From NCBI GenBank assembly GCA_021158105.1, contig JAGGVH010000016.1, positions 1-49,023 of the forward strand: DNA of 49,023 bases, in the 5' to 3' direction. This DNA is from Candidatus Micrarchaeota archaeon. Lineage in GTDB: Archaea > Micrarchaeota > Micrarchaeia > Anstonellales > JAGGVH01. The position numbers and the translations under genes were made by a program. Below, piece by piece: positions 28,168 through 43,384 of this stretch (position 1 is its first letter; each line of letters opens with the position of its first letter). The notes beneath the pieces were generated by a model. The model saw nothing but the letters and a program-made list of their open reading frames with translations, made no database searches and had not been told where the DNA came from.

Positions 28168-28211
28168 TAACTTTGTAGAATTATAAATTTGTAAATTCTT
28201 TGGTTGATATT

Positions 28212-29966
28212 ATGAGTATAAGAATAGCAGTCATTGATAGAAAGAAATGTGTTAAGGATAAATGCGGATACCTGTGCCAAAAATTTTGCCCCGGAGTGTT
28301 GATGGGGGAAGATACTATAACAATCGATGATAAGGGATACCCAGTAATCTCTGAACTGTTGTGTACAGGGTGTGGAATCTGTGTTAAAAAATGTCCTGTC
28401 GATGCAATAACAATCGTAAACCTTCCGATCGAAGGAAAAGAACCAACCTATCAGTACAATGTAAATGCCTTTAGATTGTACGGGATACCTCTGCCCAGTG
28501 AAGGTGTCACGGGATTTGTGGGCAAGAATGGGATTGGAAAGTCCACATCAATGAAGATATTAACAGGCATGCTAAAACCGAACTTTGGGGAATATGACAA
28601 AGAATGGGATTGGAAAGAAATATTAGATAAAATGAACAATATTGAACGTGCGTACTTTAGCAAGATAGCTGATAAAAAGGTTGAAGTGTCTTATAAACCA
28701 CAACACGTTGACATGTTTTTGAGGCCATTCAAGGGCACTGTAGAAGAATTGTTCAGAAAGGTCAACCCCAAAAGGATAGATGTTAATGAAGCTGTTGAGA
28801 TGTTTGAACTTAAACCTATTATGAAACGTAAACTTACTGAGTTGTCAGGAGGTGAACTGCAAAAGATTGCAATCGCAGCAGCATACATAAAAGATGCAGA
28901 ATTTTATTTCTTTGATGAGCCAGCATCATACTTGGATGTTGAACAAAGATTACTTGTTGCAAAGATGATTAAACAGCTTGCAGATGAAAAAAGAGTTATA
29001 GTGATTGAACATGACCTTGCACTGTTTGATTATTTAGCAGATTATGTCTATGTTTTTTACGGACTTGAAAATACTTATGGTGTTGTGTCAGGCATAAAAT
29101 CTGTGAGGAATGGGATCAATGAATACCTGAACGGTTATCTTAAAGATGAAAATGTCAGGTTTAGGGATCATGAAATAATATTCAGCCAAAAAGCTGAGGA
29201 AGAAGGCGAAGGGGAAGTAATGTTGAAATATCCAAAATTCGAAAAGAAATTCAGTAATTTTACATTCTCATCACAGCCAGGAGAAGTTCACAAGGGCGAA
29301 ATAATAGGAATACTCGGGAGGAATGCAATCGGCAAATCATTATTTGTTAAGATGTTGGCAGGGATCGTTAAACCTGACAACATTGAATGGGAAAACACAC
29401 TCAAGGTCTCTTACAAACCACAGTATGTAAAAGCAGAAGAAGACATATTAGTAAACCAGTTGTTTTCAAACGAAAAACTTAATCAGTTCATATTCAACGA
29501 ATCTGTGAGAAAACTAGGGATAAGCAAACTGATGGACAAACCATTGACTTCGTTGTCTGGGGGCGAACTTCAAAGGATAGCAATAACATTGGCATTGTCG
29601 CGTGAAGCTGACATTTATCTGTTTGACGAGCCGTCAGCGTTCCTTGACATTGAACAGAGGTTAGAGTTTGCATCGCTTCTTCATTCTGTGATATCAAATT
29701 CTGACAAGGTATGTTTTGTTGTTGACCATGACTTAGTATTGATTGAACTGCTGGCAAAAAAGGTTATGCTGTTCTCAGGAAAAAGTTCAATCAACGGCAT
29801 GACGTCACAACCTGTTAAAAAGTATGATGGGATGAACCTCTTCCTTAAAAAGATGGGGGTTACGATGCGCAGGGATGCTGACACATTAAGACCGCGAATT
29901 AACAAGCCGGGTTCTGTAAAGGACAGGGAACAGAAAGAAAAAGGAAACTATTATGAAGTTATATAA
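28212..29966 (+). CDS. rli: ABCE1/RLI ribosome recycling ATPase
   Basis: N-terminal Fe-S cysteines (CTGCGICVKKCP), two Walker A motifs, two LSGGELQ signatures, RPRINK.GS.KD. Confidence 0.97.
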   Translation: MSIRIAVIDRKKCVKDKCGYLCQKFCPGVLMGEDTITIDDKGYPVISELLCTGCGICVKKCPVDAITIVNLPIEGKEPTYQYNVNAFRLYGIPLPSEGVTGFVGKNGIGKSTSMKILTGMLKPNFGEYDKEWDWKEILDKMNNIERAYFSKIADKKVEVSYKPQHVDMFLRPFKGTVEELFRKVNPKRIDVNEAVEMFELKPIMKRKLTELSGGELQKIAIAAAYIKDAEFYFFDEPASYLDVEQRLLVAKMIKQLADEKRVIVIEHDLALFDYLADYVYVFYGLENTYGVVSGIKSVRNGINEYLNGYLKDENVRFRDHEIIFSQKAEEEGEGEVMLKYPKFEKKFSNFTFSSQPGEVHKGEIIGILGRNAIGKSLFVKMLAGIVKPDNIEWENTLKVSYKPQYVKAEEDILVNQLFSNEKLNQFIFNESVRKLGISKLMDKPLTSLSGGELQRIAITLALSREADIYLFDEPSAFLDIEQRLEFASLLHSVISNSDKVCFVVDHDLVLIELLAKKVMLFSGKSSINGMTSQPVKKYDGMNLFLKKMGVTMRRDADTLRPRINKPGSVKDREQKEKGNYYEVI

Positions 29967-31953: not shown

Positions 31954-33216
31954 ATGGACATTATTGAAATTGAAAACCAAAATCCTTGGTGGAATGATGA
32001 GGAATGGTTCAAAAAAGACCAAAAACTTATAACGGTTGAGAGGTCTGCTGTCAGTCTTGAATGGAAGCCATTTAAACTGGCAGAAGGAATTTATATTGTG
32101 TACGGCCCCAGACAAGTAGGAAAAACAACATGGGTTAAACAGGAAATTAAAAAACTTACTGATAAAAAAAAATATAATATATTATACCTCGCATGTGATG
32201 GAATCCTTTCAAATAAGGAATTTAAAAAAACACTCATAGAAATCTTAAAATATAAAAATTTTAAATATATATTTCTTGACGAGGTAACATTCATTGAAAA
32301 TTGGGAACAAATAATAAAATATCTTGCTGATTTAGGTAAATTTGAAGGGAAAACTGTGGTATTGACAGGATCATCATCACTCAATGTACTTAGAAAATCA
32401 GAGAGGCTGACTGGAAGACTAACAAAACAAAAACGATTTTATCCTTTAACATTTAGAGAATTTGTTAATGCAAAGATTAACACATCACCAACCAATGAAC
32501 AGTTATTTTATTTATTTAGGAGATATCTAATTCATGGAGGAATTTTAAAAGTTATTAACGAATATGAAAAAAATGGGTTTGTATCCTCTGACACTGTAAA
32601 TGATTATAGTGGAGCAATAGACGGAGAACTTTCAAAGATAAGGCATTCATCACGAATATTTAATTATATTCTCTCGCGTATCATAAAAACAATGACAAAC
32701 ACAATTTCATGGTCATCTATAGCAGGATCAGAAATTTCACAACCAACTGTATCTGATTATATTGAAATAGGAAAACAGCTTATGTTTATTGAATATATTG
32801 AAAATCTAAATTCATATGACAAGTCTTTCACAAAAAACAAAAAAATTTATTTTGTCGATCCTTTTATGTTTTGGGTTTCGCTCCATAGGATAAAAAGAAT
32901 TGGGGATGTTGGATTGGATAGTATTTTACCATATGAAAGCAAACTTGTGGAAAATGCTGTCTTTTCAAATCTTTTAATATATATTGATAAAAAAATTAAC
33001 CGTTCTATGTTTAATATACGTGATCACTTATTTTATATCAAAGATAGAACTGGGGAGATTGATTTCTACATAAATAAAAAGAAGATTGAAGTAAAATGGA
33101 CTAATAATTTTATTAAAAAACCAGACATTTTATACTTAACAAAAAGCAGTTTAAGCAGGAATGAAATACCTGTATATCAATTTTTATATGATATCGAAAA
33201 ATATGTAGGGTTATGA
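31954..33216 (+). CDS. AAA_14/DUF4143 ATPase (paralog 1)
   Basis: QNPWW, Walker A GPRQVGKTT, Walker B FLDEV, TGSS, LTGR, PLTFREF, GG, KKIYFVD, EN, EIDF..IEVK. Confidence 0.92.
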   Translation: MDIIEIENQNPWWNDEEWFKKDQKLITVERSAVSLEWKPFKLAEGIYIVYGPRQVGKTTWVKQEIKKLTDKKKYNILYLACDGILSNKEFKKTLIEILKYKNFKYIFLDEVTFIENWEQIIKYLADLGKFEGKTVVLTGSSSLNVLRKSERLTGRLTKQKRFYPLTFREFVNAKINTSPTNEQLFYLFRRYLIHGGILKVINEYEKNGFVSSDTVNDYSGAIDGELSKIRHSSRIFNYILSRIIKTMTNTISWSSIAGSEISQPTVSDYIEIGKQLMFIEYIENLNSYDKSFTKNKKIYFVDPFMFWVSLHRIKRIGDVGLDSILPYESKLVENAVFSNLLIYIDKKINRSMFNIRDHLFYIKDRTGEIDFYINKKKIEVKWTNNFIKKPDILYLTKSSLSRNEIPVYQFLYDIEKYVGL

Positions 33217-33374: not shown

Positions 33375-34634
33375 TTATTTTAACAGCCATTTCCAAACGG
33401 GCAAAACTTGAATCTCTCTACCACCTATCTTGATCGTATCCTCAGTGTCATATGTAATAATTTCATTTGAATGTTTGAACATCTTTGATGCTTCTAAAAT
33501 TCCTTTAACTTCTCTGTCATAATTGTCTTGATTTAAAGTGTATGTAACCTGAATAGATTTGTTTGATGTTATAAAATCACATTCAAACCCATTCTTATAA
33601 TAATTAATCATCTTTTCTCTTCTGCGTAGTTCCAAATAAACTATATTCTCCAACATTCTTCCTATATCTTTATCAGGCACATAATAATTTATGAAGGCAT
33701 GGTCCATCACATAATTCTTTTTTGAATATGAAAGCTCTTTTTTCCCTTTATGTCTTGGGGTTATTAAATCTAAGAAATAAACCTCTTTTAGCATACCAAC
33801 ATAACTATGAATAACTGATGTGCTTGATTTATAATTTAAACTTTTTGCAAAATTATGAAACTTATTCATAGAAAATTCTTGAGAATAATTTTTTATTATA
33901 TACTTCATTAACAAATCCATTAAATCTCTATTCTTTATATTATACCTTTCAATTATATCCCTGTAGAATATCGTTTTAAAATAATCATCAATTATGCCCA
34001 ACCGGTTTTCTAAAACAATTTCTGGAAATCCACTCAACCTAACATAATCGTCAAACATTTTTTTTACCTTATGCTGCAATTTTCCATATTCCCAATTCTC
34101 TTTAAGTTTAACTCCTCTAAAAACTAAAAATTCTTTAAATGAAAGAGGAAACAACTCTATAGAATACGCCCTGCCTCTTAAAGATGTTGCAATCTCTCTA
34201 CTAAGTAGATTTGAGTTTGAGCCAGTGATATAAACAGTATATCTTTGCTCCTGTAATCTCCTTATGAATTTGTCCCATCCTCTAATGTTTTGTATTTCAT
34301 CAAAAAAAAGTATTGGTTTTTTGTCTGGATATAATTCATTATATCCTTCTAATATATAATTCAACTGTTCCTTCCTTATGTCTGAAATCCTTTCATTTTC
34401 AAAGTTTATGTATAAAAAATCTGTTATATCTTTACCAACTTTCATCTTTTCATTCATTATTTGATAGAGCAGATATGTTTTTCCAGCTCTTCTCGGACCA
34501 ACAACTGTTATAATTTTATTTATTTTCTTAAACTTGGGTATTTTAACATCTCTTTTGTAAAAATCAGGTATTCCAGTATCATGAAACTCCATTATGATTT
34601 CTTTTATGAACCTTTTTAACTCATAATTTTCCAT
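33375..34634 (-). CDS. AAA_14/DUF4143 ATPase (paralog 2)
   Basis: GPRRAGKT, YINFE, FFDEIQ, TGSNS, LRGR, PLSFKEF, GFPE, RDIIERY, LEN.V..EL, ECDF..IQVT; start MENYE at 34634. Confidence 0.93.
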   Translation of the reverse strand: MENYELKRFIKEIIMEFHDTGIPDFYKRDVKIPKFKKINKIITVVGPRRAGKTYLLYQIMNEKMKVGKDITDFLYINFENERISDIRKEQLNYILEGYNELYPDKKPILFFDEIQNIRGWDKFIRRLQEQRYTVYITGSNSNLLSREIATSLRGRAYSIELFPLSFKEFLVFRGVKLKENWEYGKLQHKVKKMFDDYVRLSGFPEIVLENRLGIIDDYFKTIFYRDIIERYNIKNRDLMDLLMKYIIKNYSQEFSMNKFHNFAKSLNYKSSTSVIHSYVGMLKEVYFLDLITPRHKGKKELSYSKKNYVMDHAFINYYVPDKDIGRMLENIVYLELRRREKMINYYKNGFECDFITSNKSIQVTYTLNQDNYDREVKGILEASKMFKHSNEIITYDTEDTIKIGGREIQVLPVWKWLLK

Positions 34635-34670
34635 ACTATTATCTACTAAATAAACATTTTTAAACCTTTC

Positions 34671-34728
34671 TATTTCTTTCTGTTCATAGAAAGAAAATTG
34701 GTAAATTCTTTCTATTGGTAGAAAGAAA
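34671..34728 (+). repeat. Repeat B, copy 2 (upstream of the ATPase 2 promoter)
   Basis: 58/58 identical to 33317-33374. Confidence 0.97.
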
Positions 34729-34730
34729 GT

Positions 34731-34782
34731 TGTTTTCTGTAAAAAACAAAAATGTATGTTTTTGTTCTTTTGAAAAAACAAT
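34731..34782 (+). repeat. Repeat C, copy 1 (52 bp, abuts the ATPase 3 stop)
   Basis: 51/52 identical to 36050-36101; half-sites TTTTTGTTTT/AAAACAAAAA. Confidence 0.96.
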
Positions 34783-36020
34783 TATAGGATTGAATAAAAT
34801 ATATAAAACGGAAGTTTATACACCCCATCTTTTTCAGAAATATCCAATCCTTTATAAACAATTATTTTCTTGAACTTAGTTTTTATGTTATTAAACTGCT
34901 GGAACCCTTTTTTCTTTGAACCTATTTCAATTAGATAATCTTTCCAAACAAAATCAATATTATCTAAAAAATAAACATTTGTAAAATTAGATGCAAATAT
35001 ATCTTCAGTCATATTCCCAACAGTTTCTGACTCTGGGATCAACATCATATCAGCATACTCCTTTCTTATAGATGGGACAATAAAATAATATTTCCATTCC
35101 TTTCTTGCAGAAGATTTACCCATTTTGTAAGGCAATACCCTTTTTATGATTTCACCTCTCTCAAGAAGATTAAGCATACTACCCACCATACTCTTTGAAA
35201 CTCCAAGATCATTAGACAATACTGTATAATTAATCTTATTAGAAGCTGATAATAAGAGAATCATCCTTTCAAATTTATTCAGAGTGTATGTTTCCAGATT
35301 TCTTGACTTTGCAATGTCTGAATATATTACTTTTTCAACAAGGTCTTTTAATGTTTTAGGAGAATTATCAAACAGGTATGGTAGATTATTATTTATATAA
35401 TCATCAACAATATTTAATAAATTTGACACTTTATCATGAATATAGATATCATATCTCATTGCACTTCTCAATAAATCTTCACCTGGATTAAACCTTTCAA
35501 GTTTTACACCAGTCCTAATAAATATATATTCTCTAAATAACAAGGGGGGCAGGTGAACATAATTTGCACGTCTTGCAAGTTTTTGTTTGGATTCCTTAAT
35601 ATTTAAAGATGATGAACCAGTAATATAAAATTTCATTTTAGTATATTTATCATATGCAACTTTTATTTCATCCCACCAGTTAGGATAAGCATTGATTTCA
35701 TCTATAAACACTATTGCATCATCACCAAATAGATATTGAACCGCTTTTAAAACACTAAGTAAAGGTAACTTAACAGTGGATATCTCCTCCCCATGAATAT
35801 AAACTCGTTTACTTTCGTCAGATTCATTATATTTTTGGAACATGATAGTTGTTTTACCACTGCCACGTATACCATACATAATATTTAAACGTTTATTAAA
35901 CATATCATAAAAAAATCTTTTTTTATATTCAACATAATCTTTAGACGTCTTTTCATATCCAATCTTAGAATATTTAACAAATTCAACTGCATCAATAGAA
36001 TTTACTCCAAAATTATTCAT
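34782..36020 (-). CDS. AAA_14/DUF4143 ATPase (paralog 3)
   Basis: GIRGSGKTT, FIDEI, TGSSS, LARR, PLLFREY, wHTH LSNDLGVSKSMV, KYYF, IDF..IEIG; start MNNFG at 36020. Confidence 0.92.
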   Translation of the reverse strand: MNNFGVNSIDAVEFVKYSKIGYEKTSKDYVEYKKRFFYDMFNKRLNIMYGIRGSGKTTIMFQKYNESDESKRVYIHGEEISTVKLPLLSVLKAVQYLFGDDAIVFIDEINAYPNWWDEIKVAYDKYTKMKFYITGSSSLNIKESKQKLARRANYVHLPPLLFREYIFIRTGVKLERFNPGEDLLRSAMRYDIYIHDKVSNLLNIVDDYINNNLPYLFDNSPKTLKDLVEKVIYSDIAKSRNLETYTLNKFERMILLLSASNKINYTVLSNDLGVSKSMVGSMLNLLERGEIIKRVLPYKMGKSSARKEWKYYFIVPSIRKEYADMMLIPESETVGNMTEDIFASNFTNVYFLDNIDFVWKDYLIEIGSKKKGFQQFNNIKTKFKKIIVYKGLDISEKDGVYKLPFYIFYSIL

Positions 36021-36049
36021 GTTTATTATATATACATATATATTTATAA

Positions 36050-36101
36050 TGTTTTCTGTAAAAAACAAAAATGTATGATTTTGTTCTTTTGAAAAAACAA
36101 T
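36050..36101 (+). repeat. Repeat C, copy 2 (adjoins the ATPase 3 TATA box)
   Basis: Direct repeat of 34731-34782 with 1 mismatch. Confidence 0.96.
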
Positions 36102-36428
36102 GCTTTTAGATATCACCAATCTTGCTTGAAAAGAATTCTACTATTTGTCCACTATAACCATTATAATAAGATCCTTCCATAATAGGATTATACATTTTTT
36201 AGTTAAAAATTGTGATTAAACATTTGATGTTTAGGTTAAATGTTAACTGTTAAGGATAAGAGTTAGAGTGGTTAACTGATAGTTTTTATAAAACATTTTC
36301 AACAGTCAACCCCCATAAAACCCATAATAACCTTTTTAAAACTATATGATATAATATACTTGAATATTTAAATGAATGTTTGAAAATAAAAAGTAAAAAG
36401 TTTGATGTTTGAACGGAGGTGTCAGAAG

Positions 36429-38472: not shown

Positions 38473-41037
38473 CTATTTATACCTTAAAAACGCCCCTATC
38501 CCAAAAAACATATTCTTAAACTGTGCACCTTCAGTAGTATTAGTAGAAATAAAATGATATTCAATGTTATGCCTATTAGCAAGATTAACAAGGTAATCAA
38601 TCAAAGGCATAGTTTCACTGTTAGGTTTAACTTTATCACCGGGCTTGATTATCCTGACATCCTCTTCACCATCATCGCCCTTAACAATCTCAACTGTATA
38701 ATCCAAATCTTCTGATATCAAAACAGAATCGGCTTTATAACTCTTTATCGCATCAATCACAGGCTTGAGACCATAAACTGCAAGCCCGCCGGTTACTGCA
38801 TCACCAATGAACCGCGACACCATCTTACGCTCCTGCATAGCCTCTTGTTCCATTATTATATCTTCACCTTTTCGTATGATTTCATTAATCCCTGCCTCAT
38901 CAGTATACCCAACATCTATAAGAGGTTTTAAAACCTTTATTTGATAATTAAACGGTTTCATCTTAATAAAATTCTCCTTGGCAGGACCGGGCCCGCCGAT
39001 CAAAACACCTTTAACCTGGTTTGGCATAAAATATCTATCCATGTACTCCCCTATCCGCTTATAATAATTTTCAATCTCCTCAGTAATCAAACGTTGATAT
39101 CGTGCTGCACTGTTATGAACAACAAAACTGTTTGCTATAAAATTTTTATATTCAGGAATAGTCAAATCATAAACTTCTTTTTCTATTCCTAACTTATCAA
39201 TGCTCGCTACTACTGCAGGAATAAGATCTGATGAAACTAAAACAGACATCTCATCCACAATTTCTTTATATCTCTTATAATTTGAGTCGCCCTTAAATGC
39301 TGATAACTGCTTTCTGAACACTGGCAAAACCTTTGCCTTAAACCTTTTACTGCCAATGCCCCTCTTTCCACTGAAAAACATGTTTAACCCGTCAAAATCC
39401 CTTGTTTTCATACCCATCTTATGTGCCTGTTTTAAAACATACCTGCCGTCCACTGGAACCTGCCTGATAACTTGTGTTACAGTTTCAGCTTTACATATCT
39501 TTTTACATCTTTCTTGTTTTGAAGACAAACTAAAACCTATTTCATTAGTAAAAATCTTAACAGATTCTAAATCAGATATGATCAACCCCCACTGCCTCTT
39601 TTTCTGGTTTTTATCAGTATGTTTCTCATAAACAGTTGATATGATCCCAAAACGTAATAACAACATTTGCAACTTTCGTATCAATTTTTCGGTAGTCATA
39701 GCAATTTCTATTTTTGTGTTTGCAATATATCCTTCCGCATCAAATAAACCCCTTATAAAAGCACTACAAACATTATTATCAGATTTCATTACAATCTCGG
39801 GTATATCTCTATTATCACTCTTTTCAAATACTGTTTTACTTATCTGTTTCAACATCCGTCCAAAATTCCTACCATAAACCCTTAATTCAAGATATGTCTT
39901 TTTTGCAAAGCTTCCTTTTTGTTTAGTCTTGTCGACCGTTCTTACTTTCGTATCGACTCCAAAAGTTTTTGAGATAAGTTTTGAATATAAGTCAACCAAT
40001 TCCTTTTTTGATTCATACAAAACCACTTTATCCCCATCAAAAGAACCATCACCTGTGAGATAACCTATAACCTGTGCGACATCACTGTTAAAATATCTAG
40101 GAAATTTGGGCAGTTTTGCTCCTTGTCTTCGCACCAGGCCAATCTTCAATGGAACCTCAACACCTTTGTGTGGTATGCATCTTACAGACAAAACCTTATC
40201 GCCTTTTTTAAGGTCTTTTGCCAACCTTTCCCCAATCCCATTCTCAGTGATTACAAAGAATCTATGTCCAGCAGTCGCCCTTATCTCCATTGTAGGATAT
40301 TTTGTTTTTATCAAGAATATTGACCTGTTCAAATTTTTAGTAACTACGGGGCAGATATAATCTTTAACTGAATAATCCTTAAAACTTGAAACTTTAAGAT
40401 AATCGTTCGGAAGAAGGTTTTTTATCTCAGTTATCACACCATCAGACTTTTGCACCAGCGTACCAGGATGCAAACATTGCCCACCGACGTGCACTTTAGC
40501 ATGTGCTGTTGAATTGACCTCTTTAAGCTTTTCAACTTCAGTACCTTTCAAGTAGGCCAGTGTAGCCTGCCTACCGTCCATCGCCAAAATTCCATAAACG
40601 TCAGTGTGTGATATCATACGTTCTAAAGGTTCAAGAAAGAATTTTGAATCACACCTATAAATCTGAACAGATAACGGTACCGGCGGCAGGATCGAAAACA
40701 GTTTAATGTCAACTTTTGCAGGGTTATCTGACACATTACCACAGAACACTGCAATACCGTTTTCAGGTGTCCGTCCAAGATTTTTAAGAAAACCTATAAC
40801 TTTCTCAAGTGCATCGCCCACATTAGTCCGTGTAGTCTTAGATTTAATATTGGTTGACTGGCTCCGCTCACTCCTTAATTTATTTGTTACTTCATGAAGT
40901 TGATACCCTGCAGGTATATAAACCGATATGAGCTGTGTACCACTACCCTTAAGTTTTCTTAAATAATCCAATTTACGTTTCAATTCAAACTTCTGATCCT
41001 TTGTAATGACCACTGGAACATCATCTGAAGCTGCCAT
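38473..41037 (-). CDS. prf1: Peptide chain release factor aRF1, intein-containing (about 399-aa extein)
   Basis: GTQLISVYIP, NIKS, YRCDSKF, GGQ|intein|SAARY, GGPGPAK, T.EG.QF..FGIGAFLRY. Confidence 0.96.
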   Translation of the reverse strand: MAASDDVPVVITKDQKFELKRKLDYLRKLKGSGTQLISVYIPAGYQLHEVTNKLRSERSQSTNIKSKTTRTNVGDALEKVIGFLKNLGRTPENGIAVFCGNVSDNPAKVDIKLFSILPPVPLSVQIYRCDSKFFLEPLERMISHTDVYGILAMDGRQATLAYLKGTEVEKLKEVNSTAHAKVHVGGQCLHPGTLVQKSDGVITEIKNLLPNDYLKVSSFKDYSVKDYICPVVTKNLNRSIFLIKTKYPTMEIRATAGHRFFVITENGIGERLAKDLKKGDKVLSVRCIPHKGVEVPLKIGLVRRQGAKLPKFPRYFNSDVAQVIGYLTGDGSFDGDKVVLYESKKELVDLYSKLISKTFGVDTKVRTVDKTKQKGSFAKKTYLELRVYGRNFGRMLKQISKTVFEKSDNRDIPEIVMKSDNNVCSAFIRGLFDAEGYIANTKIEIAMTTEKLIRKLQMLLLRFGIISTVYEKHTDKNQKKRQWGLIISDLESVKIFTNEIGFSLSSKQERCKKICKAETVTQVIRQVPVDGRYVLKQAHKMGMKTRDFDGLNMFFSGKRGIGSKRFKAKVLPVFRKQLSAFKGDSNYKRYKEIVDEMSVLVSSDLIPAVVASIDKLGIEKEVYDLTIPEYKNFIANSFVVHNSAARYQRLITEEIENYYKRIGEYMDRYFMPNQVKGVLIGGPGPAKENFIKMKPFNYQIKVLKPLIDVGYTDEAGINEIIRKGEDIIMEQEAMQERKMVSRFIGDAVTGGLAVYGLKPVIDAIKSYKADSVLISEDLDYTVEIVKGDDGEEDVRIIKPGDKVKPNSETMPLIDYLVNLANRHNIEYHFISTNTTEGAQFKNMFFGIGAFLRYK
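39112..40476 (-). mobile_element. Intein (455 aa) with LAGLIDADG homing endonuclease, in aRF1
   Basis: Block A CLHPGT, block B ATAGHRF, LAGLIDADG motifs IGYLTGDGS and FIRGLFDAEG, block F VYDLTI, block G NFIAN..VVHN followed by Ser. Confidence 0.96.
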
Positions 41038-41194
41038 AATATAAGTTTAATTCAATATTTTTATAAACCGTGCAGGCATACATAGAAATATACAGACCAC
41101 TCAAACAAATTTCATAATGTTTATAAAACTTCGTATATAAAAGAAACCTATTCTTCTTATAGAAGTGTGATATTGATTTAAAGAGGTGTATTTG

Positions 41195-43384
41195 ATGGCA
41201 AAGAAAGAAAACATTGTTGAAATGGTTGAAAGATTGATGGGCAACCGGGAAAACATCAGAAACATTGCTATTGTTGCACACGTTGACCATGGCAAGACAA
41301 CACTGTCAGATTCATTAGTCGCACGAGCAGGACTAATGTCTAAGGAATTGGCAGGTGAACAAAGAGTTTTGGACTATGACGAACAAGAACAAGCAAGGGG
41401 AATAACTATTAAATCAGCAAACATTTCTCTTGCATTTCCATATCAGGGCAAAGATTATTTAATAAATCTGATTGACACGCCAGGGCATGTCGACTTTGGA
41501 GGCCATGTCACAAGAGCAATGCGCGCCGTTGACGGAGTCATAGTGGTCATAGATGCAGTTGAAGGTGTAATGCCCCAGACTGAAACAGTGCTACGGCAGG
41601 CTATAAAAGAACGTGCCAAGCCTGTCATTTTCATTAACAAGGTTGACCGTTTGATAAGTGAAATGAGGCTCACACCCGAAGATATGCAGAAACGGTTAAT
41701 AAAAATAGTATTACAAGTCAACAAACTGATAGGACAGTATGCACCAAAAGAATTCAAAGATGCATGGAAGGTTTCTGTTGAAAACGGAACGATATCATTC
41801 GGTTCAGCATTTCACAAGTGGGCAGTGTCGGCAAATTCAATGAAACGCACAGGGTTAGGTTTCAAAGACATAATAGAACTTACACAATCTGAAAGAGTAA
41901 AAGAATTGCAAGAAAAAACACCTGTCGACGAAATCATACTAGAAATGGCTATCCATCATCTGCCCAACCCGCTCACTGCACAGAAATACAGAATACCACA
42001 CCTGTGGAAAGGTGACATTGAATCACAGAACGGTAAGGATATGATTGAATGCAACCCGGACGGTAAACCGATAGGTGTTTGTTTTGGCGTGATGAACGAT
42101 CCACATGCAGGTGAAGTTGCACTTGTCAGGTTATTCTCAGGCACTGTAAAAAAAGGTGACCAGTTATACTTAGCATCAACGATGAGTTATGAGAAGATTC
42201 AACAGTTAGGGATATACATGGGCAAAGAAAGAGTAGTATGCAACGAATTAACGGCGGGCAACATTGCGGGCATTGTCGGACTGAAAGATGTGTACGTAGG
42301 AGAAACAATATCATCAGAACCTGTTGAACCGTTTGAAGAAATCAAACATTACTCAGAACCTGTGATAACCAAATCAATTGAAGCCAAGAACAGCAAAGAC
42401 TTGTCAAAACTTATCCAGGCGCTTCGTGCAATCTCAAAAGAAGACCCAACAATCAGGGTCAAGATCAACCAAGAAACAGGTGAACATTTGATTTCAGGCA
42501 TGGGAGAACTTCACTTAGAAATCATTGAATATAAACTTAAGAACGAAAAAAAGATTGACATCGTGACTTCTCCGCCGATTGTTGTTTACAGGGAAACGAT
42601 TCACAAAAAAGGGCCTGAAGTAGAAGGCAAATCGCCGAACAAGCATACTAAACTATTATTCTCCGTTGAACCATTAGAACCAGAATTTATCAAGGCAATC
42701 GATGAGGGCAAAGTTAGCGAGGGCAAGGCAAAAGGCAAAGCTTCAATCGAAGAATACATTGCAGGCGGTTTACAGAGGGATGAGGCAAAGAGAACCATTG
42801 AAGTCTTCAATAAGAACGTTCTGATTGATGCTACAAGGGGCGTACAATACTTAAACGAAATCATGGAACTTGTAAGGCAAGGGTTTGAAGAGGCAATGAG
42901 CAAGGGACCATTGGCACAGGAAAAAGTTGTCGGTGTCAAGGTCAAGATATTAGACGGTACAATTCACGAAGACCCAGTCCACCGCGGTCCTGCACAGATA
43001 TTGCCGACTGTTAGAAATCCGATCTATTCATCATTATTACAAGCAGGAGTAATAATACAGGAACCTAAGCAGAAAGTATTAATTCAGGTCCCACAGGAAT
43101 TCTCAGGTGCGGTTATTAATTTAGTAAACGGCAAGAGGGGGCAATTACTCAACATGGAGCAGGAAGGTGAAGTTGCAACATTGCATTTCAAAATACCTGT
43201 TGCAGAAATGTTTGGTTTTTCAAGTGACCTGAGAAGTACAACACAGGGCAAAGCTATATGGTATCAGGAATATGCAGGATATGAAGACATACCACGCGAC
43301 TTACAAAAGAACATTGTCCATCAAATCAGAAAGAGGAAAGGATTAAAACCTGAACCACCAGAACCCAAAGATTTTGTAAGTTAA
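41195..43384 (+). CDS. fusA: Translation elongation factor aEF-2
   Basis: AHVDHGKTT, RGITI, DTPGH, NKVD, GMGELHLE, diphthamide loop HEDPVHRGPAQ; GAGGTG RBS. Confidence 0.98.
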   Translation: MAKKENIVEMVERLMGNRENIRNIAIVAHVDHGKTTLSDSLVARAGLMSKELAGEQRVLDYDEQEQARGITIKSANISLAFPYQGKDYLINLIDTPGHVDFGGHVTRAMRAVDGVIVVIDAVEGVMPQTETVLRQAIKERAKPVIFINKVDRLISEMRLTPEDMQKRLIKIVLQVNKLIGQYAPKEFKDAWKVSVENGTISFGSAFHKWAVSANSMKRTGLGFKDIIELTQSERVKELQEKTPVDEIILEMAIHHLPNPLTAQKYRIPHLWKGDIESQNGKDMIECNPDGKPIGVCFGVMNDPHAGEVALVRLFSGTVKKGDQLYLASTMSYEKIQQLGIYMGKERVVCNELTAGNIAGIVGLKDVYVGETISSEPVEPFEEIKHYSEPVITKSIEAKNSKDLSKLIQALRAISKEDPTIRVKINQETGEHLISGMGELHLEIIEYKLKNEKKIDIVTSPPIVVYRETIHKKGPEVEGKSPNKHTKLLFSVEPLEPEFIKAIDEGKVSEGKAKGKASIEEYIAGGLQRDEAKRTIEVFNKNVLIDATRGVQYLNEIMELVRQGFEEAMSKGPLAQEKVVGVKVKILDGTIHEDPVHRGPAQILPTVRNPIYSSLLQAGVIIQEPKQKVLIQVPQEFSGAVINLVNGKRGQLLNMEQEGEVATLHFKIPVAEMFGFSSDLRSTTQGKAIWYQEYAGYEDIPRDLQKNIVHQIRKRKGLKPEPPEPKDFVS

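Follow-up and report, generated by a model that had tools for sequence, protein, structure and literature searches.

An intein in the catalytic loop of aRF1

The window analysed here is a contig of 49,023 nucleotides from a Candidatus Micrarchaeota archaeon (GenBank assembly GCA_021158105.1, contig JAGGVH010000016.1), and its gene for archaeal release factor 1 (aRF1) is interrupted by an intein. A single open reading frame (ORF) on the reverse strand (38473..41037; 854 codons plus stop) encodes the precursor as N-extein, intein and C-extein, and all parts of the gene described below lie on this strand. The ORF was recognised as aRF1 by matches to TIGR03676, eRF1_1, eRF1_2 and eRF1_3 and by Foldseek similarity to the aRF1 structures 4af1 and 3agk. 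The intein occupies residues 188-642 (455 residues; 39112..40476), with junctions GGQ/C (187/188) and HN/S (642/643); in the translation, GGQ is followed by CLHPGT from residue 188, and FVVHN by SAARY from residue 643. Excision in silico yields a protein of 399 residues that reads ...HVGGQSAARYQRL / ...AKVHVGGQSAARYQRL..., so that GGQSAARY is regained, as the original prediction had proposed. The same prediction had placed a full-length homing intein of 455 residues directly after GGQ; its coordinates agree exactly with the junctions found here, and the Pfam and NCBIfam matches and the structure support it.

The exteins score as a full aRF1. The N-extein (residues 1-187; 40477..41037) comprises the N domain, which contains NIKS and YRCDSKF, and the beginning of the M domain, up to HVGGQ; residues 15-188 align with positions 1-174 of TIGR03676, which the genome search placed at 40474-40995. 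The C-extein (residues 643-854 plus stop; 38473..39111) begins with SAARYQRL and supplies the remainder of the M domain together with the C domain, matched by model positions 174-402 at 38476-39111, by eRF1_2 at residues 642-728 and by eRF1_3 at residues 734-854. On the genome, the aRF1 model is therefore found as two halves, positions 1-174 and 174-402, which abut exactly at the insert. Over the precursor as a whole, TIGR03676 scored 359.7 bits against a cut-off of 234.7 (E 1.7e-107), with the N, M and C domains all present. The translation contains HVGGQ, STNIKSK and YRCDSKF; GGQ is the catalytic motif of aRF1, and NIKS and YxCxxxF are its stop-codon motifs.

Pfam recovered Intein_splicing (E 8.7e-20) and LAGLIDADG_3 (E 2.8e-28, in two stretches) from the precursor in addition to the three eRF1 domains, and the splicing-domain profile PF14890 scored 71.5 bits against a cut-off of 35.8. 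NCBIfam placed intein_Nterm at residues 188-262 and intein_Cterm (TIGR01443) at residues 621-643 (E 3.9e-8), and the insert also matched the intein parts of the "intein-containing" DnaB, RNR, RpoA'', IF-2, V-ATPase A and RFC models. We aligned 69 intein-bearing aRF1 precursors to count conservation at each functional position. Cys188, which is intein residue 1 and the first nucleophile at the N-terminal splice junction (40474..40476), is Cys in 69/69. Block B (TxxH) reads T255-A-G-H258 (40264..40275), where His is present in 69/69 and the first position is Thr in 50/69 and Ser in 19/69. At the C-terminal splice junction (39109..39117), His641, Asn642 and the +1 nucleophile Ser643 are each found in 69/69, in agreement with the TIGR01443 match, and the block-F Asp is likewise invariant. 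The two LAGLIDADG motifs of the original prediction correspond to the two stretches of PF14528 and retain both acids: VIGYLTGDG (40045..40071) with catalytic Asp330 (Asp in 66/69), and IRGLFDAEG (39730..39756) with catalytic Glu435 (Glu in 67/69), the latter within the best PF14528 stretch (residues 424-501). The window copy has the full set (C188, T255xxH258, D330, E435, D624, H641, N642 and S643).

The predicted fold agrees with these assignments. An AlphaFold2 model of the whole precursor, built with the 69-sequence alignment, had a mean predicted local distance difference test score (pLDDT) of 90.1 and a predicted template modelling score (pTM) of 0.65, and the endonuclease region had block-mean pLDDT mostly near or above 90. 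When the model was compared with the PDB by Foldseek, the insert matched the TliVMA intein 7qss (E 1.3e-25, template modelling score on the target 0.74), PI-PfuI (1dq3), PI-PkoII (2cw7), PhoVMA (7qst), PI-SceI entries and I-DmoI (5a0w), and the exteins matched aRF1 4af1 and 3agk and many eRF1 chains. By sequence, the PDB returned the V-ATPase inteins 7qsu and 7qss (E about 1e-11) and 1dq3 (E 5e-9). The sequence and fold features of a class-1 intein are present, namely a first-residue nucleophile, TxxH, His-Asn followed by Ser, the HINT profile and fold, and a host that is restored by excision; those of a two-motif LAGLIDADG endonuclease, with both acids and a fold nested in the splicing domain, are present as well. 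Contigs from four public runs of one study, labelled hydrothermal vent metagenome, span both junctions, and none lacks the insert, although these are low-depth contigs from which rare variants are dropped. The bridging of both junctions in four runs makes an assembly chimera unlikely. No RNA run with this stretch was found among the public runs listed.

The window is one contig (C43) of a genome assembly (G000) of 961,869 bases in 50 contigs, estimated to be 88.8% complete. The aRF1 model found no second aRF1 in G000; the only other match was weak (E 1.2e-18), to a Pelota-like ORF of 342 residues on contig C2. The original prediction that termination would depend on splicing is supported by this result, since with a sole aRF1 detected termination has to rely on the spliced product, subject to the incompleteness of the genome. 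G000 also contains, on contig C46, a match to TIGR00537 (hemK_rel_arch) of 169 bits against a cut-off of 87, which we take to be an Mtq2-type glutamine methyltransferase; four archaeal control genomes match TIGR00537 over the cut-off too. Passages of PMC6144793 report that the Gln of the aRF1 GGQ motif is methylated by Mtq2 in Haloferax volcanii. The presence of an Mtq2-type gene makes plausible, as an inference, the earlier proposal that methylation of the GGQ Gln depends on splicing.

The conserved residues, read with the known chemistry of class-1 inteins, suggest the following course. Translation would first give the 854-residue precursor, in which the 455 residues inserted at the M-domain tip should prevent the loop from entering the peptidyl-transferase centre. 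Cys188 would attack the carbonyl of Gln187 (N-S acyl shift), the N-extein would move to the hydroxyl of Ser643, cyclisation of Asn642 would free the intein, and an O-N shift would leave mature aRF1 of 399 residues, in which a normal peptide bond joins GGQ to Ser. Methylation by the Mtq2-type enzyme and function on the ribosome would be open to this spliced product alone. Once released, the intein probably cleaves aRF1 alleles that lack it, at the strongly conserved DNA encoding GGQ/S, and repair would then copy the intein in (homing). Homing inteins typically insert into essential genes at their most conserved codons.

Another reading would be that the insert does not splice, or that the gene is a pseudogene, and that another factor terminates translation. 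The incompleteness of the genome leaves some room for such a factor, and some DPANN relatives have altered catalytic loops in aRF1 (see below). However, the frame is open over 854 codons, every splicing residue is intact, the exteins retain a full aRF1 score and no other aRF1 was found, and we regard this reading as very improbable, the least credible of those considered here.

Distribution and mobility of the element

The intein is absent from both genomes of the same genus that were searched. One of these (G001) encodes an uninterrupted aRF1 of 397 residues with HVGGQSAARF at the site, which shares 75% of its residues (297/395) with the window extein. The other (G002) reads through the site (HVGGQSANRY), with its gene broken over two contig ends. 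At the DNA level, the empty site resembles the flanking sequence in the window. The G002 gene is split over contigs C90 and C134 (loci L005 and L006), with overlapping model ranges of 1-192 and 167-402, and this assembly break near the insertion site may reflect strain variation there.

The nearest intein in the database, that of protein P0002, is 61% identical to the window intein, and the corresponding exteins are 54% identical. Other hosts with exteins of similar identity (50-57%) have inteins that are only 31-40% identical. We built quick maximum-likelihood trees from 51 intein-bearing sequences. In the extein tree, the window first joins the intein-less G001 (Shimodaira-Hasegawa-like approximate likelihood ratio test, SH-aLRT, 100), and P0002 comes next (98). 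The tree path between P0001 and P0002 is 1.19 for the extein (median 1.54) and 0.86 for the intein (median 2.70), so that this intein pair is much closer than the general ratio of intein to extein rates predicts. Such closeness is in keeping with a transfer, or with gain and loss, since the divergence of the hosts.

Across the phylum, the site is mostly empty. Our sample of 401 genomes comprised G000 and others of the window's phylum, including the unpublished G031 and G199, both scored as uninterrupted. An uninterrupted aRF1 match over the cut-off was found in 343/401, and 44/401 had some match to the window intein at E <= 1e-20, a count that takes in other, longer host frames. About 27/401, G000 included, combine a half-gene aRF1 match with a homologous intein in a frame of 760-990 residues, an estimate drawn from two tables rather than from coordinates. 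The nearest homologue of the window intein within these 401 genomes is 40% identical.

The closest named database matches of the precursor are labelled Micrarchaeota. In a search of a collection of 5.8 billion proteins (lengths 469-1495 residues), which returned 241 matches at E <= 1e-5, we examined the best 120. An intein lies at the same junction (GGx/C...HN/S) in 119 of these best 120 of 241, with lengths from 152 to 577 residues; the sole exception, P0088, lacks the N-terminal part. Source names among the best 120 include Micrarchaeota, Diapherotrites, Aenigmarchaeota, Nanoarchaeota and "DPANN group". The novelty of the element had been thought to hang on the rarity of the site, and this homologue search shows instead that the site is common in databases. 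Likewise, the earlier view that a release factor is an uncommon intein host holds for the printed record only and fails in sequence databases.

The junction is occupied by elements of several builds. Mini-inteins of 130-145 residues sit at the GGx/S junction in loci labelled Aenigmatarchaeota or Woesearchaeota (L011-L014, L039, L041, L048, L050, L056, L057, L059, L063, L068, L070 and L081). Three long proteins (P0080, P0086 and P0112; 1448-1463 residues) are aRF1s with two inteins, the extra one lying between R and C of YxCxxxF (LYR/CLAPET...FLVHN/CDDHF). G000 itself has a second intein, in an ORF of 937 residues on contig C30 (locus L098, 1049..3862, reverse strand) with junctions DIN/CLTGD...IVSN/CGVR; its host is presumably RtcB, a name we assigned from its sequence. 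The genome is thus one that hosts inteins.

The wide but patchy presence of the element, its absence within the genus and an intein that is closer to its relative than the host genes are to each other together form the pattern of a mobile selfish element. We conclude, with a probability of roughly 0.85, that the insert is a true intein of class 1, carrying a LAGLIDADG homing endonuclease with two motifs and placed in frame between Gln187 and the Ser of the GGQS loop in the sole detected aRF1, and that it is a selfish element rather than a regulator. Judged from its sequence, it is probably an active homing intein. Several points weigh against this conclusion. Splicing and DNA cleavage are predicted from sequence and fold. 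A second aRF1 could lie on unassembled DNA of a genome that is 88.8% complete. P0002 is also the nearest intein-bearing host in the extein tree (SH-aLRT 98), and part of the pattern could stem from vertical descent, with loss in G001 and G002, together with slow evolution of the intein, with no need for recent transfer. The intein has a guanine-plus-cytosine (GC) content of 34.6%, similar to the 35.1% of the window, and thus gives no compositional sign of recent arrival. Finally, the four runs showed no joint that lacks the intein, but their low-depth contigs drop rare variants.

Some of these points would suit a fixed, immobile intein that still splices by necessity, whose endonuclease no longer cuts, and which is retained only because imprecise loss would destroy the GGQ loop. 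The host-like GC content is consistent with this, as are the distances to the nearest homologues (61% identity in the database, 40% in the phylum genomes), at which no very recent transfer is visible. However, the LAGLIDADG acids and the motifs around them are intact and conserved in 66/69 and 67/69 precursors, the endonuclease region is modelled with high confidence, presence varies within the genus, and the window intein is closer to that of P0002 than the exteins are to each other. We therefore consider loss of mobility unlikely, though it is the strongest of the alternatives.

Splicing as a switch and altered GGQ loops

The original prediction also raised the possibility of a conditional switch, in which temperature, redox or another signal gates splicing and so adjusts, after translation, how much active and methylatable aRF1 there is and how efficiently termination proceeds. 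With the insert in the catalytic loop of the sole aRF1 found, a change in splicing rate would alter termination capacity; the sequence is present in runs labelled hydrothermal vent metagenome, a variable habitat; and conditional splicing is known for other archaeal inteins. Against a switch, the flanking extein residues (...KVHVGGQ / SAARYQ...) contain no Cys, and none of the five Cys within the intein is conserved (at most 27/69). A disulfide trap of Cys1 was rejected on the same count. A useful regulator should also persist, whereas this element is absent from relatives in the genus and from most of the phylum, and mini-inteins, full inteins and inteins bearing a helix-turn-helix (HTH) domain all occur at the site, as expected of a selfish element that decays and re-invades. 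The switch idea is thus left without support, and we consider it improbable. Slightly less credible still, in our view, is the broader notion that the aRF1 intein is more than a parasite. On that account, it would have been long kept at the catalytic loop of genome-reduced DPANN archaea under several phylum labels, even where the catalytic Gln has been replaced, as a splicing gate setting the amount of active, Mtq2-methylatable release factor under changing vent conditions.

Replacement of the catalytic Gln emerged as an observation separate from the intein. Among the 119 intein-bearing proteins of the best 120 of 241 matches, the intein is preceded by Q in 101 cases, by M in 12, by W in 3, by F in 2 and by S in 1. 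We collected 79 DPANN loci (L008-L086) from contigs of one genome per species, using an alignment of non-Q proteins as the query, so that the sample is biased towards non-Q. The aRF1 motif is GGQ in 46 of these loci; in the other 33 it is GGM or GGW, and these are mostly labelled Aenigmatarchaeota, with some Woesearchaeota (for example loci L016, L019, L020, L027 and L079; proteins P0064, P0083 and P0073). The intein was ruled out as the cause of the change from Gln to Met or Trp at position -1, as 22/33 non-Q aRF1s have no intein. Eight such genomes, among them a complete chromosome of 742 kb, have no full aRF1 match other than the non-Q protein.

The altered loops share a further feature, in that 31/33 non-Q aRF1s read GGxSQ, the exceptions being L033 (GGWSAN) and L071 (GGMSSG). 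According to Burroughs and Aravind (2019; PMC6514570), Vms1-like release factors have GGxSQ as their catalytic motif, and a shift of the catalytic Gln by two residues is therefore one possible reading. TIGR00537 matched over the cut-off in 35/46 GGQ genomes (including the unpublished G477) compared to 0/33 non-Q genomes, among which the nearest scores below the cut-off were 85.3 and 73.8 bits. On an extein tree, at least three changes are needed to account for the non-Q state: one clade comprises 19 GGM sequences, a second has 11 GGW members and encloses a single GGQ row, and the third consists of 3 GGW sequences. Each of the three independent contrasts goes together with the absence of a methyltransferase match, but so small a number does not support a test (median p 0.25). 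Passages of PMC6144793 describe GGQ as universally conserved and Mtq2 orthologues as present in all archaea. We found no description of altered GGQ in DPANN aRF1 in the full-text literature, a coverage that excludes subscription-only journals. Whole DPANN lineages with a sole GGM or GGW aRF1 and no Mtq2-type match over the cut-off may matter more than the intein.

Other genes of the window include some related to translation. EF-2 (41186..43384, forward strand) adjoins the aRF1 gene in divergent orientation, and an ABCE1-like gene with two 4Fe-4S motifs and ABC ATPase domains lies at 28200..29966 (forward strand); ABCE1 is the ribosome-recycling partner of aRF1. Three adjacent paralogous ATPase genes with AAA_14 and DUF4143 domains are found at 31954..33216 (forward), 33375..34781 (reverse) and 34782..36119 (reverse).

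Intein hosts in the literature and solved relatives

No description of a natural intein in aRF1 or eRF1 was found in full-text literature, again with subscription-only journals outside the coverage. One candidate paper (PMC5871332) was set aside, as it mentions intein and peptide chain release factor separately. Intein surveys, which the original prediction had suggested consulting, bear this out in part: the main text and two of the three supplementary files of Novikova et al. (2016; PMC4760082) contain no release factor. That survey reports few inteins in core translation proteins, and passages of it give aIF2 as a translation-factor host, with 15 cases. The mechanism proposed here is textbook and the kind of element well known, and the site is common in data, yet no description in print was found. 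With this element, a translation termination factor joins the list of intein hosts, at its catalytic loop, and hundreds of examples lie in public data. Intein-bearing aRF1 precursors carry source names such as "helix-turn-helix domain-containing protein" and "LAGLIDADG family homing endonuclease", so that surveys of DPANN gene content could wrongly score aRF1 as missing. The intein-less allele of the same genus is a ready target for a homing assay.

The nearest comparison is with the other DPANN aRF1 inteins (P0002, P0004 and P0011; loci L009, L018 and L062), which share host, junction and the HINT plus LAGLIDADG build, P0002 being the nearest. They differ in that, in 49/69, the N-terminal splicing lobe is separated from the endonuclease by an additional 63-74 residues, an insertion that the window intein lacks. 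In the alignment of 69 precursors, it maps between precursor residues 285 and 325, and the source database annotates PF01381 HTH_3 in many of the matched proteins. Other occupants of the aRF1 site differ in being mini-inteins of 130-220 residues.

Among solved structures, the best relatives are the Thermococcales V-ATPase A-subunit inteins TliVMA and PhoVMA (7qss, 7qsu and 7qst; sequence E 7e-12 to 5e-8, fold E 1.3e-25 for 7qss). These are likewise class-1 inteins with a nested two-motif LAGLIDADG endonuclease, but their host is an ATPase and not a translation factor, and identity over the Foldseek alignments is 17-18%. PI-PfuI, the ribonucleotide reductase intein of Pyrococcus furiosus (1dq3; Foldseek E 2.1e-21, sequence E 5.3e-9), and PI-PkoII (2cw7; 6.9e-18 and 1.9e-6) are also archaeal and of the same size class (PI-PfuI has 454 residues). 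They differ in their replication and nucleotide-metabolism hosts and in extra DNA-binding domains that are not evident in the aRF1 intein. The archaeal aIF2/IF-2 inteins (NF011418) likewise sit in a core archaeal translation factor, and the endonuclease region of the aRF1 intein matches their model (E 1.2e-17); their host, however, is a GTPase, whereas the intein of the window sits in the catalytic loop of a release factor.

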